Program-made: the position numbers and the translations under genes | Origin: a virus | Virus record (IMG/VR): IMGVR_UViG_3300017742_004322 | Span: 1-64,000 of that record | Strand: one strand, 5' to 3' | DNA length: 64,000 nucleotides | Shown: positions 53,957 to 57,997 of the stretch, one piece after another | Position numbering within the stretch: the first letter of the stretch is position 1 | Layout: the number at the start of each line of letters is the position of its first letter | Notes under the pieces: generated by a model | What the model saw: only the letters and a program-made list of their open reading frames with translations | What the model was told of the DNA's origin: nothing | The model's database searches: none

Positions 53957-54376
53957 TTACTTTCTAAAGCCCTTGTGGTTATCTATGCGATCTAATAATT
54001 TATTTAATTCTTCAGCTTTTATAAATCCAGCCATAGATGCATTTTTAAGGGCACTGATTATTTGTAATATAATGAACGGTATGATAACTGCTTCGCTAAG
54101 CCAAGCTGTTCCTGTAAAACCTTTTTCTACCATTAATACTACTGTTAAAAACATAACCCAACCTATAGCACGTTGTAATACACGAACTGCTTTTCTTGTT
54201 TGAAAACCTTCACGTTTAATTCCAGCTACTATACCAAAAAAACCATCTATAAAGACAACAGCTATTAAGCCAAGATATTGTTCAGCGTTACTCATAGTAA
54301 GCTCCATAAAATAAGAGCATAAAAAAGATAGTGTCAAAATAGGGACGGTTAAGAAAGTTATAGTGGAAGTTTTCAT
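53957..54376 (-). CDS. Phage holin (Hol44/TcdE-like)
   Basis: Several TM segments; ID...G and ...S.L.N...G pattern; adjacent to the endolysin. Confidence 0.7.
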   Translation of the reverse strand: MKTSTITFLTVPILTLSFLCSYFMELTMSNAEQYLGLIAVVFIDGFFGIVAGIKREGFQTRKAVRVLQRAIGWVMFLTVVLMVEKGFTGTAWLSEAVIIPFIILQIISALKNASMAGFIKAEELNKLLDRIDNHKGFRK

Positions 54377-54843
54377 ATTGACCAGTTTTCGTAATAAGTC
54401 TTTCCTTTGGAATTTCTTTTAGCTGATAGGATTTGGCCTCTTTGTTCTCCATCACTATTATATGAAACATGAACCCAATCAGGTCTTTCGTTAGTTCCAA
54501 ATTCCCAGATTAATTGGTCAAATGGTAAATTTTCTCTAATATAATGAAATATTTCTTCATTTTCTGGGCCATTTCGATAATCCATATCAATATCAATAGC
54601 TTCACCTTTTGAATGTTGTGAAGTCTTGGAGCCACCAATTGCTTCATTTAAAGCTTGGCTTCTATATCCTGAAGAAATGAAAATAGGTTTAGCGAAGTGT
54701 TCTCTAATTGGTTGAAATATTTTTTCAGCTAATAATTTAGCTGCCTCTAGATGTTTGCCTTTAGGAGTATTATCTAAACCTCTACGTTTTGCAGTTGAAG
54801 ATCTAGTAAATTCACCTAAAGATAAGTTTTTAGATAATTTCAT
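54373..54843 (-). CDS. Zn-dependent peptidase M15 (endolysin candidate)
   Basis: SSGYRS..LN..IGG...SQH..G.A.D and WVHVS motifs; true start MKLSKNLSL at 54843. Confidence 0.9.
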   Translation of the reverse strand: MKLSKNLSLGEFTRSSTAKRRGLDNTPKGKHLEAAKLLAEKIFQPIREHFAKPIFISSGYRSQALNEAIGGSKTSQHSKGEAIDIDMDYRNGPENEEIFHYIRENLPFDQLIWEFGTNERPDWVHVSYNSDGEQRGQILSAKRNSKGKTYYENWSI

Positions 54844-54850
54844 AAGTTTA

Positions 54851-54925
54851 CTAATTACAATTACAGCATGAACATCCACAGGTAAAGTGACAATTACATA
54901 CTATACAATTACAGCTATTTTTCAT
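54851..54925 (-). CDS. 24-aa Cys-rich metallothionein-like peptide (not in ORF track)
   Basis: MKNSCNCIVCNCHFTCGCSCCNCN. Its ATG overlaps the upstream TGA (ATGA) and it fills the gap before the endolysin. Confidence 0.7.
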   Translation of the reverse strand: MKNSCNCIVCNCHFTCGCSCCNCN

Positions 54926-55143
54926 TTTTTAGCAAATTTTTCTAATCCTGCGATACCAAATGAACCTAATGTGATAAATACAAATGAGTTATAAATGAAT
55001 TCTTGAATTACTAAGTCTTTACCAAAGTAACCTGTTACTAAGTCTACTATAGCAAATATTACCATTACAGCAAACGCCATAAATCCAATAACATTCTTTT
55101 CATTTACGTTATTATCATCTTTAAAAATATCTTTAAAGGCCAT
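54922..55143 (-). CDS. Small 2-TM holin-like protein
   Basis: Two TM helices and a charged C-terminus; first gene of the lysis cassette. Confidence 0.55.
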   Translation of the reverse strand: MAFKDIFKDDNNVNEKNVIGFMAFAVMVIFAIVDLVTGYFGKDLVIQEFIYNSFVFITLGSFGIAGLEKFAKK

Positions 55144-55211
55144 GATTTTATTTTTTATATTATTAGGCATATAAAAACCATTAAGTATAACAAATTATAT
55201 GCTTATACATA

Positions 55212-55751
55212 TTATTTATTTTTATAGAAAAACTCTAAAATTTCTTTTTCTAACACAGTATCCATAACAAAATTATCGCCATATTGAATACTTGTAAAAG
55301 TTCCATCATTTTCATTAACAATTTCAATAATATAATCTATTTCATCATATATTAAACTATAACTTTCACTTTTTTTAACTAAATTAATGCTTTTGTTTTT
55401 ATCTTCTTGAATCCCAGTAAATGTAATTTCTTTATTACTTAAATCCGGAACATTAGTAAGCTTAGTTACACACTGGGCATAATTTGAGTGAAGAGTATCA
55501 ATTAGATATGTATTATCTAATTCACTCATTAAATATAATCTTTGTTTTGAGTCTAATCCACCAGCTTTGAAATCACCAGTATATTGCACCATTGGTAATG
55601 ATAATAAAACTAATTTTAATTCCGGGGCAAGCTTATTAAAATTTACTACAGAAGTTATTTGATTACTATTATTAATATCTCTATTAAAAGGTAAAGATAG
55701 AAGATCATAAAAAGTCTTTGTGCTAAGATTATCTAATATCTGAGGGCTCAT
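55212..55751 (-). CDS. Hypothetical soluble protein, last gene of the kinase operon
   Basis: 179-aa ORF starting 1 nt after the upstream stop. Confidence 0.65.
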   Translation of the reverse strand: MSPQILDNLSTKTFYDLLSLPFNRDINNSNQITSVVNFNKLAPELKLVLLSLPMVQYTGDFKAGGLDSKQRLYLMSELDNTYLIDTLHSNYAQCVTKLTNVPDLSNKEITFTGIQEDKNKSINLVKKSESYSLIYDEIDYIIEIVNENDGTFTSIQYGDNFVMDTVLEKEILEFFYKNK

Positions 55752-55752
55752 T

Positions 55753-56325
55753 TTATTCTTTTTCTGTTGCGTATTTAACTCCCATAATTGTGCCTACAAT
55801 AGAAAATGCATTTGTAAGTAAAATACCAAACATATTACTCCAGGTTGATCCTATAATTTGAGTATCTGCTCCTGAAGTTAGTGCGATAGCATACATAATT
55901 GTAGTAATTATACCCACACCAACTATTACTACTAAAGCAACTTTCACAATTGTACTAATTAGTTCAAATTGGGTTTTCTTTTGCATTACTTCTAAATCTT
56001 CTAATGCTTTATCCTTACCCTTTTCTGCTTTTTCTCTTAATTGATTTGATGATTCTAATGCTACTTGAAGCTCCTTCATTAGAGTATCATTTTCTTTTTG
56101 TTTTTCAACAAGTTCTCCATTTTGTTTTTGAACTTGTTTCGTAACCTCTAAACGTTTTTTACGTCTAGTAGTATCTTTTTCTTTACAGAGTTCAAGATAT
56201 TTCTCAAATTCATTATCACCTTTTGGGGCTTTAAGAAGTTTAAGGAAATTTCCTTCTACATAGATTTTTCTTTTTTTAGCAACCTCTAGTAGAACATTTC
56301 TTACATGCTCTGTTATTTCTATCAT
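55753..56325 (-). CDS. Coiled-coil plus 2-TM membrane protein, coupled to the response regulator
   Basis: Helical N-terminal domain, heptad region, two C-terminal TM helices; TAATG overlap with the receiver gene. Confidence 0.75.
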   Translation of the reverse strand: MIEITEHVRNVLLEVAKKRKIYVEGNFLKLLKAPKGDNEFEKYLELCKEKDTTRRKKRLEVTKQVQKQNGELVEKQKENDTLMKELQVALESSNQLREKAEKGKDKALEDLEVMQKKTQFELISTIVKVALVVIVGVGIITTIMYAIALTSGADTQIIGSTWSNMFGILLTNAFSIVGTIMGVKYATEKE

Positions 56326-56762
56326 TACCTATAAACTTTAAATTCAGCTGATCTATCTTTATAAGCATCATAATCTGTCATAAATTCTTCTAATCGAGGT
56401 TCAATATCATCTGATTTAATAATCCAAAATTGAGCTCCAGCGGCTTTTGCTTTTTCAATTTCTTGATTGTCATCTGATGATGATATAATTCCTATTACAC
56501 ATCCATTACCATACTCAAAATTAATTTTACGAATTAACTCAATTCCATCAAAAGATGAACCAAGTATATTTAAATCAACAAATACACATTCGGGGCGTTC
56601 TTCATTAGGGTCATCGGGCCACCATTCTTTAAATTTAAGATTAGCTTCATCTGAAGAATTAAGGGCTTCTAGAGATAAAGTTATATCTAAGATGCTACAG
56701 GCATCTTCAAATACCAAGTGGAATAGATCCTCATCGTCTATAAGTAATATAGAATTTATCAT
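56325..56762 (-). CDS. Stand-alone response regulator (receiver domain)
   Basis: ILLIDDE, phospho-acceptor FVDLN, DGIEL, ISSS and AGA..WIIK motifs; no output domain. Confidence 0.92.
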   Translation of the reverse strand: MINSILLIDDEDLFHLVFEDACSILDITLSLEALNSSDEANLKFKEWWPDDPNEERPECVFVDLNILGSSFDGIELIRKINFEYGNGCVIGIISSSDDNQEIEKAKAAGAQFWIIKSDDIEPRLEEFMTDYDAYKDRSAEFKVYR

Positions 56763-57997
56763 GTTGTTTTAATTTTTATTTTTAATATAGTTCCTGTTTT
56801 TGTTTTTTCAGAGGTTATAGCAAAACCATGTTCTTTTAATATTGCGATACATATATTTAATCCTAACCCTGATCCTCCTTCTTTTTGCCCTGCTTTTCTA
56901 GTATATGGTTTTGATAATTGAAGGAATTCTTCATTAGTCATTCCTCTTCCATTATCTTCTATACATAAAGTAGAATCATTACCCATATAAATAGATACTA
57001 ATTTAGTAGAACTATCATTATATTTTAACCCATTTCTAATTAAATTGTCTATTGCTGTACAAAATAAAGGTTCATTTACATTTACTACAGGTAAACTTTT
57101 AATTTTAACTTGCTTAATATAAGATGTAGCAGATAAATAATTATTTAGTATAACTGCTAAATTATGATCTTCCATATCTAATTGAGCATCTTCTTTTACT
57201 AAGTTAGTAAATTCTTTAACTCCAGCATAAACTCTTTGTGTATGTTTTAAACCTTCTTCTAACATTTTTAAAGGAGCTTCTATTTTTAATTCTTTAATTT
57301 TTTCAGCAGAAACTCTTCTTTTTAAAGAAGTTAACCCCCTAGGCATATATGTGTTAATTCCACTATGCATATCGTGTCTTAAAATTTTAGCAGCATGTTC
57401 TAAATAAGAATTTTTCTGGTTGACTTCAATTTCAGCATTGTGTTGTATAGTTGTATCTGTTGCTATTTTTAAAACTTTATTATACCCACCCTTAGGATCT
57501 TTTATTGGAGTATAATTACCAAATAACCAACGAGAAGTACCATCCCTAGCAATTCTTTCAAATTCACCACTAATAGTTTCACCTCTTTGTAGTCTTTTCC
57601 AAAATTCATGATAGTCTAAACTATTGCTATACTCTTTAGGAACCATATATCTATGGTTTTTGTTTTTTAATTCTTTTTCTGTATAACCCATAGTAGTACA
57701 AAAGTTGCTATTATGAGATAAAATTTTCCCTTCCATATTAAGTACTACTACTATATTTGATTTATCAATTGCATTTAATTGTAAATCAATATTTGCTTCT
57801 TTTAATTTAGAAGTACGATTAAAATCCCAAATAATATAAGAAAAGAAAGGAATTAGGGCAATTATACATCCATACCCAAATTCAGCTAAAAAATAACTAA
57901 ACTCAAATACTCTAAATACAAGAAAAGTTTCTAATATAAAGAATATAAGTATAATTCCAACTGATATGCCTAAACATATTTTTGTAGCTTTATTCAT
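56759..57997 (-). CDS. Membrane PAS/PAC sensor histidine kinase
   Basis: Two N-terminal TMs; PAS/PAC (N..F...GY..EL, FW..L..G, RDG..RW, PI.D, D.T); H-box RHD; N-box NLIRNGLKY; G1 DNGRG; G2 GSGLGL. Confidence 0.93.
   Translation of the reverse strand: MNKATKICLGISVGIILIFFILETFLVFRVFEFSYFLAEFGYGCIIALIPFFSYIIWDFNRTSKLKEANIDLQLNAIDKSNIVVVLNMEGKILSHNSNFCTTMGYTEKELKNKNHRYMVPKEYSNSLDYHEFWKRLQRGETISGEFERIARDGTSRWLFGNYTPIKDPKGGYNKVLKIATDTTIQHNAEIEVNQKNSYLEHAAKILRHDMHSGINTYMPRGLTSLKRRVSAEKIKELKIEAPLKMLEEGLKHTQRVYAGVKEFTNLVKEDAQLDMEDHNLAVILNNYLSATSYIKQVKIKSLPVVNVNEPLFCTAIDNLIRNGLKYNDSSTKLVSIYMGNDSTLCIEDNGRGMTNEEFLQLSKPYTRKAGQKEGGSGLGLNICIAILKEHGFAITSEKTKTGTILKIKIKTT

Follow-up and report, generated by a model that had tools for sequence, protein, structure and literature searches.

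The DNA analysed here (the window, 64,000 nucleotides) is a portion of an IMG/VR record of 74.9 kb, with an estimated completeness of 51%, and the nearest isolate to the phage that it represents is Flavobacterium phage immuto. In the region considered below, every gene is carried on the minus strand, and the following features are found:

54922..55170, minus strand: two-TM (2-TM) protein of 82 aa that heads lysis cassettes; no family match, present on hundreds of viral contigs
54851..54925, minus strand: nine-Cys micro-gene of 24 codons with the stop codon TAG, encoding MKNSCNCIVCNCHFTCGCSCCNCN; member of the CxCxxCxCxxxCxCxCCxC family
54844..54925, minus strand: 82-nt segment made up of the micro-gene and a 7-nt spacer; missing in sister phages, a probable insertion
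54373..54843, minus strand: M15 endolysin (Peptidase_M15_3) of 156 aa; PF08291 at 6e-22, phrog_894 endolysin
53957..54376, minus strand: holin (Phage_holin_4_1) of 139 aa; Pfam match, located downstream of the endolysin

Read from 54925 to 54851, the micro-gene encodes 24 amino acids, including nine Cys and one His, and lies between the 2-TM gene and the M15 peptidase gene, as the preliminary description of this DNA had claimed. The arrangement described there is also borne out in detail: the TGA of the 2-TM gene overlaps the ATG of the micro-gene (ATGA at 54922..54925), and the TAG is followed after 7 nt by the endolysin ATG at 54843. The holin ATG, in turn, overlaps the endolysin stop codon in another ATGA. 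A mechanical list of open reading frames places the peptidase start at the GTG at 54879 and runs the peptidase across the micro-gene, which is how, as had been pointed out, the latter came to be hidden. Since ATG is the start codon in 80 of 80 peptidase homologues, the true start of the endolysin is the ATG at 54843. The annotation of the locus is thereby corrected in two respects, the endolysin start and an additional gene inside the cassette. One label did not survive: the upstream 2-TM gene had been termed holin-like, whereas its product has no holin family match and the Pfam holin is encoded downstream of the endolysin. The endolysin carries the zinc motif H..D..H (SQHSKGEAID ... WVHVS) and contains no Cys. 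Further upstream, positions 55212-57997 of the window form the part of the operon that the lysis genes continue, including genes for proteins of 412 and 145 aa; this operon starts past a terminator-like hairpin at 58041-58012. At the junction itself, RNA folding revealed no unusual structure (z=-0.40), and scans for promoters and terminators and for tRNAs returned nothing relevant.

Besides the micro-gene, the window contains no Cys-rich ATG-initiated reading frame with 15 or more aa, and the highest count among 60 first-order Markov simulations was six Cys, nine being reached in none. Close relatives were retrieved through the flanking genes only, which yields a sample without cysteine bias. 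In five such contigs (L002/L083, L082, L084, L085, and L086), a 24-codon frame occupies the same place and reads MK[NT]NCNCITCTCQATCAC[LS]CCNCN. Conservation of the Cys residues in syntenic lysis cassettes had been proposed as a check on the gene, and the outcome is favourable: all nine are kept in all five contigs, even where the Cys codons differ synonymously from those of the window (TGT/TGC, at two to four codons) and where 6-7 of the 14 residues other than Cys and Met are replaced. In particular, His13 is replaced by Gln and Phe14 by Ala in the closest relatives; the His is thus not conserved. Over its 75 nt, the frame shares 77-80% DNA identity with these relatives, compared with 92-97% for the flanking 2-TM and peptidase genes, a difference that is significant by Fisher's exact test (p=3e-5 for L082, p=9e-4 for L085).

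In sister phages, the two flanking genes are joined without the peptide. The 2-TM stop codon overlaps the M15 start directly in L005/L144, L146, L148, L138, L095, L101, and L009, and the junction reads ...GCTAAAAAATGAAATTA... in L005, L144, L146, and L148. Compared with these phages, the window contains 82 extra nucleotides with a direct repeat of ATGAAA at both edges. The insert is confined to contigs with a 2-TM identity of 96% or more, which indicates a recent insertion. The 2-TM gene has 548 relatives in IMG/VR, and the type of endolysin encoded behind it varies between lineages; M15 peptidases, GH19/chitinase-like enzymes (as in immuto), and several others were observed, and in some lineages (among loci L082-L161) the holin gene directly follows the 2-TM gene. 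Immuto itself possesses the 2-TM gene and the holin together with a different endolysin, and a genome-wide search of this phage found no nine-Cys reading frame.

At least 14 marine DNA runs contain the window phage, as do six RNA libraries. In two metatranscriptome runs from different studies, contigs corresponding to positions 54568-55064 and 54749-55090 match the window with no differences and span the stretch from the 2-TM gene through the micro-gene into the endolysin gene; uncovered stretches of the 1-kb region carry no meaning in these libraries. The bridging contigs are compatible with a single transcript, and DNA carry-over may also explain them.

The micro-gene belongs to a large family. 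IMG/VR was scanned with a DNA pattern for the Cys spacing alone, start and stop codons not being required. Apart from poly-Cys noise, the matches comprised 15 unrelated contigs with a frame of 20-22 codons, in each of which an ATG lies no more than three codons upstream and a stop codon immediately follows the last Cys; the exception among the non-poly-Cys matches outside the window clade is L172, where the pattern lies in a larger frame without an ATG. A second scan used a tighter pattern. Together, the two scans recovered at least 96 distinct peptides of 20-24 aa with the spacing CxCxxCxCxxxCxCxCCxC, from at least 125 viral loci on more than 120 viral contigs, the search pattern itself partly forcing the invariance of the Cys residues. 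The skeleton of the family is M-x0-3-CxCxxCxCxxxCxCxCCxC-stop, and the consensus of the phage peptides from these pattern scans is MKC[ND]C[KQ]xC[NK]CG[TK]SC[DE]C[TS]CC[ND]C. Positions left free by the search pattern also show strong preferences, among them a Gly that follows the fourth Cys and a Ser that precedes the fifth; G9, T10, and S11 recur. The window copy fits the family in its spacing, in having no more than three residues before the first Cys, and in its length within the range of 20-24 codons. It differs from the rest in starting three residues ahead of the first Cys, in lacking the Gly that usually follows the fourth Cys, and in having an extra Asn at the C-terminus. An apparent longer member is the 36-codon frame MRNRQNCNCENCKCQKACNCMKCNCSKSCDCACCDC with 15 Cys on the minus strand of L285; part of the nine-Cys unit seems to have been duplicated within it.

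The carriers include T4-like myophages with genes for the Gp23 capsid protein, the gp44 clamp loader, and primase. Among the 124 viral loci listed, the most common neighbour is an FAD/NAD dehydrogenase gene (36 loci). When this gene was used as an anchor to draw an unbiased sample, the peptide was present at 4 of 65 loci, indicating a sporadic accessory gene. Searching for isolates by way of the neighbouring dehydrogenase yielded only distant Campylobacter phages. A tblastn comparison of one family member with the isolate-phage collection was negative, an outcome that low-complexity filtering probably explains. Most of the 65 marine T4-like phage loci share a conserved intergenic element upstream of the dehydrogenase gene (located in L458-L537, e.g., L503:520-700). 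This element opens with a hairpin that has the loop GATTCATAGC and compensatory changes in its stem (CCGATTCATAGCCGG, GCTCGATTCATAGCCGAGC, CTAGATTCATAGCCTAG), followed by an A-rich spacer, a second GC hairpin with a T-run, and TCGTATATTTAA about 25 nt before the ATG; a search of Rfam with the element gave no match.

The same Cys spacing is also found at about 35 chromosomal loci in metagenome-assembled and single-cell genomes (MAGs and SAGs) of marine Bacteroidota. The carriers belong to the Cryomorphaceae, the Flavobacteriaceae, and Marinoscillum/Cytophagales, have a GC content of 26-31%, and are represented by contigs of up to 1.1 Mb. Housekeeping genes flank these copies, including those for a Na/Ca exchanger, glutamine synthetase, a purM-like protein, pirin, and MsrA. 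A synteny test free of search bias was based on an adjacent gene for a 119-aa protein, used as the anchor at 22 loci from the 0.6-1.4 Mb genomes of a single flavobacterial genus. A 21-codon frame lies 23-31 nt past the anchor gene at 15 of the 22 loci, and its 13 distinct sequences share nine invariant Cys residues while the anchor protein falls to as little as 64% identity. In many marine Flavobacteriales (L388, L391, L394, L399, L403, L410, L415, and others), a conserved motif, AAAGTTATTAACAATTT, with the inverted half-sites GTTA-T-TAAC, occurs 40-50 nt past the chromosomal nine-Cys frame; judging from its form, it may be an operator or promoter element. Outside the Bacteroidota, the high-GC actinobacterial frames L405, L428, and L457 (Streptomyces, Streptacidiphilus, and Amycolatopsis) have Cys/Asp-rich C-termini, e.g., ...CDCGCDCCDCSC-stop, that fit the spacing pattern within longer frames and are either relatives or compositional artefacts.

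The composition of the peptides resembles that of metallothioneins. Cys accounts for 9 of the 24 residues (37.5%) in the window copy and for 42% across the family, in CxC, CC, and CxxC arrays, and the remainder of the family peptides consists of Asn, Lys, Ser, Thr, Asp, and Gly. Aromatic residues are lacking in the phage copies (0%, with 0.05% His) and nearly so in the bacterial set (0.15%); the window copy has Phe14 and His13. The low molecular weight expected of metallothioneins is likewise found, at 24 aa here and 20-24 aa family-wide. The closest likeness is to the C-terminal domain of plant type-2 metallothioneins (PF01439, Metallothio_2), as encoded in L451, where the frame 186-425 on the minus strand specifies an 80-aa plant-type metallothionein (PF01439 at 2.9e-15) with the C-terminal domain SCGCNTCKCGTSCGCSCCNCN-stop. 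This domain shows the identical nine-Cys spacing, CxCxxCxCxxxCxCxCCxC; it has Gly-Thr-Ser before the fifth Cys, as do most phage copies; and it ends in CCNCN-stop, as does the window peptide. The plant protein differs in being 80 aa long and in having an additional Cys domain at its N-terminus as well as an extended spacer. A BLASTP comparison of the peptide with the plant metallothionein gave E=58, so homology is without statistical support, and the resemblance could be due to convergence. As to the source of the plant-type sequence, L451 (566 bp) and L427 (331 bp) are tiny contigs in the assemblies of Ectobacillus ponti and Isoptericola croceus; the 27 C-terminal residues encoded by L427 are identical to those of L451, the metallothionein sequence of L451 is mRNA-like, and both contigs probably represent contamination of the assemblies.

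Other metallothioneins offer partial parallels. Animal β domains (M(II)3Cys9) and wheat Ec-1 also place nine thiolates within about 20-30 residues, in CxC and CC arrays, and lack aromatic residues, as does the family consensus; however, they are parts of larger proteins, whereas the peptide described here is a free-standing product of 20-24 aa. Fungal copper metallothioneins of the Neurospora crassa type have about 25 aa and seven Cys. As far as their description goes, the peptide resembles them in its minimal size, single domain, and CxC motifs and differs in having nine Cys rather than seven and another spacing. No Pfam or NCBIfam model matched the window peptide, or up to five other members per library, at E<=10; a profile search of the PDB gave wheat Ec-1 metallothionein (2KAK) as its sole match, at a non-significant E=8; and no description of the family was found in the literature on phage metallothioneins, Bacteroidota metallothioneins, Cys-rich micropeptides, and sequence motifs. 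The term metallothionein-like, used in the preliminary description, therefore holds as a description, given the nine-Cys arrays, the composition, and the plant metallothionein spacing, but not as a match to a curated family. Judged by its sequence, the peptide appears to behave like a metallothionein domain without being assigned to a curated metallothionein family.

Taken together, we favour, with moderate confidence, the view that the micro-gene is a real mini-metallothionein-like gene from a large unannotated family that was recently inserted at this locus and is not dedicated to the endolysin. Once translated, the peptide would most likely be folded by its nine thiolates around metal ions, making it a mini-metallothionein of one domain. 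If nine-Cys metallothionein domains are taken as a guide, about three Zn or Cd ions or several Cu(I) ions would be bound, and the peptide may buffer metals or thiol redox inside the infected cell, presumably to the benefit of the phage. The micro-gene would be of host origin or common to phage and host, and the segment bounded by ATGAAA would have been dropped into a permissive junction of the lysis operon, that at which the 2-TM and M15 genes are translationally coupled; insertion at such a point would cause the micro-gene to be expressed with the lysis genes. Several observations weigh against this proposal. Neither the curated metallothionein models nor the BLASTP comparison with the plant protein lends it a match, the contigs from RNA libraries can carry DNA, the Phe and His of the window copy are atypical for metallothioneins, and a comparison of neighbouring genes found none for metal handling beside the phage or bacterial copies.

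Among the alternatives, the one that fares best is that the peptide is real and has a main role other than metal storage, as an inhibitor or mimic of host proteins, an anti-defence factor, or a sacrificial thiol/redox buffer. Host-takeover genes typically show the kind of patchy, moron-like distribution in variable phage slots that is seen here (4 of the 65 loci anchored on the dehydrogenase), and genes for the redox-linked proteins pirin and MsrA recur beside the bacterial copies. However, it is the Cys skeleton alone that is invariant while surface residues drift, a pattern more in keeping with a metal cluster than with a specific interface to a protein, and the links to neighbouring genes are weak. 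Such a role is thus possible, but we consider it rather unlikely.

It has also been considered that the frame is a regulatory upstream ORF or leader in which the passage of ribosomes over nine Cys codons would adjust how often translation restarts at the endolysin ATG, with Cys-tRNA supply as one possible signal, the peptide itself being functionless. The overlap with the upstream gene, the 7-nt gap downstream, and the high share of Cys codons (9 of 24) would suit such a device. Yet the alternative RNA structures and the fixed position upstream of a regulated gene that characterize attenuator leaders and uORFs were not found: the junction is not unusually structured, and in most phages and in bacteria the frame is solitary, in many cases with a terminator-like hairpin or at least 100 nt of intervening sequence behind it. 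Moreover, the 2-TM and endolysin genes of sister phages are coupled in the absence of the micro-gene, and the conserved preferences outside the Cys positions suggest that the peptide itself is under selection. A leader function is accordingly judged improbable.

The preliminary description had proposed that the peptide is a co-translated Zn buffer, or a redox-sensitive Zn-release switch, dedicated to the M15 endolysin, supplying or withholding its metal and thereby gating lysis. The proposal draws on the tight coupling of the micro-gene to the 2-TM gene on one side and to the gene of a Zn-dependent peptidase on the other, and on the peptide diverging faster than its flanks. Comparison with the rest of the family lends it no support. 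M15 peptidase genes adjoin the micro-gene at 6 of the 124 viral loci listed; five of these represent the window clade, the only clade found within a lysis cassette among the family loci listed, and the sixth is L169, in which an M15-like peptidase gene lies upstream of the micro-gene and which provides a second, independent adjacency in favour of the proposal. In five large records of carrier phages, including one with 96% completeness, no match to PF08291, PF13539, or PF02557 was obtained by a search that did detect the window's own peptidase as a positive control. Consistent adjacency across carriers, as expected of a dedicated endolysin accessory or lysis regulator, is thus not seen (6 of 124 listed loci; none of five large carriers). 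In addition, sister phages (L005, L144, L138, L095, L101, and L009) join the 2-TM gene straight to the endolysin, the cellular copies lie amid housekeeping genes with no peptidase beside them, His13 is not conserved, and neither the endolysin nor the 2-TM protein offers a Cys for thiol exchange. The 24-aa sequence also contains no hydrophobic stretch and no lipobox, the features sought in a test for a holin, antiholin, or spanin. A different Cys motif, CLCxDxxxYSRxCCxG, ends shortly ahead of the M15 peptidase start, or overlaps it, in L080 (1214-1504), L064, and L071; the frames with this four-Cys motif (CLCxD...CCxG) are unrelated to the nine-Cys family, and in L080 the motif forms the C-terminal end of a frame that is 96 aa or longer.

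It is accordingly quite improbable that the peptide serves as the dedicated metal switch of the endolysin. The same low standing applies to a mini-metallothionein co-opted in the window lineage as a metal/redox checkpoint of the lysis operon, which, translated immediately before the M15 enzyme, would govern the amount of Zn reaching it and release the metal upon oxidation. To our knowledge, no such checkpoint on lysis has been described for any phage; were it real, competence for lysis would be set by metal and redox conditions in the dying host. Position alone is insufficient to make the peptide a lysis regulator.

The two remaining alternatives have little in their favour. Some sactipeptide and ranthipeptide precursors are likewise very small and Cys-rich, but a RiPP precursor is highly improbable here: the peptides have no leader/core layout, only 0-3 residues preceding the first Cys, and no radical-SAM enzyme or other maturase recurs beside the frame at the 124 listed viral or 35 bacterial loci. 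Finally, a chance frame or a non-coding TGTAAT-type DNA repeat, suggested by the occurrence of TGTAATTGT three times in the frame and six times in the window against 1.7 expected, is already refuted by the comparative data, since in the relatives the repeats decay (TGT to TGC, AAT to ACT) without loss of the frame or of the Cys codons, the opposite of what is expected of a repeat conserved at the DNA level, nine Cys were reached in none of the 60 simulations, and the family is kept as a reading frame at more than 150 loci.

Micro-genes of this kind are missed by gene callers because their lengths fall under the usual cut-offs. The family is common to abundant ocean phages and to streamlined flavobacteria, which are probably their hosts. 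Provided that the peptides bind metal, no smaller free-standing gene product of the metallothionein type would be known, and the family would be a first example of such a gene widely carried by phages. The handling of trace metals and thiols (Zn, Cu, Cd) would then join the host functions carried by marine viruses, and the 21-24-residue peptides would provide a tractable model for metal-thiolate clusters.
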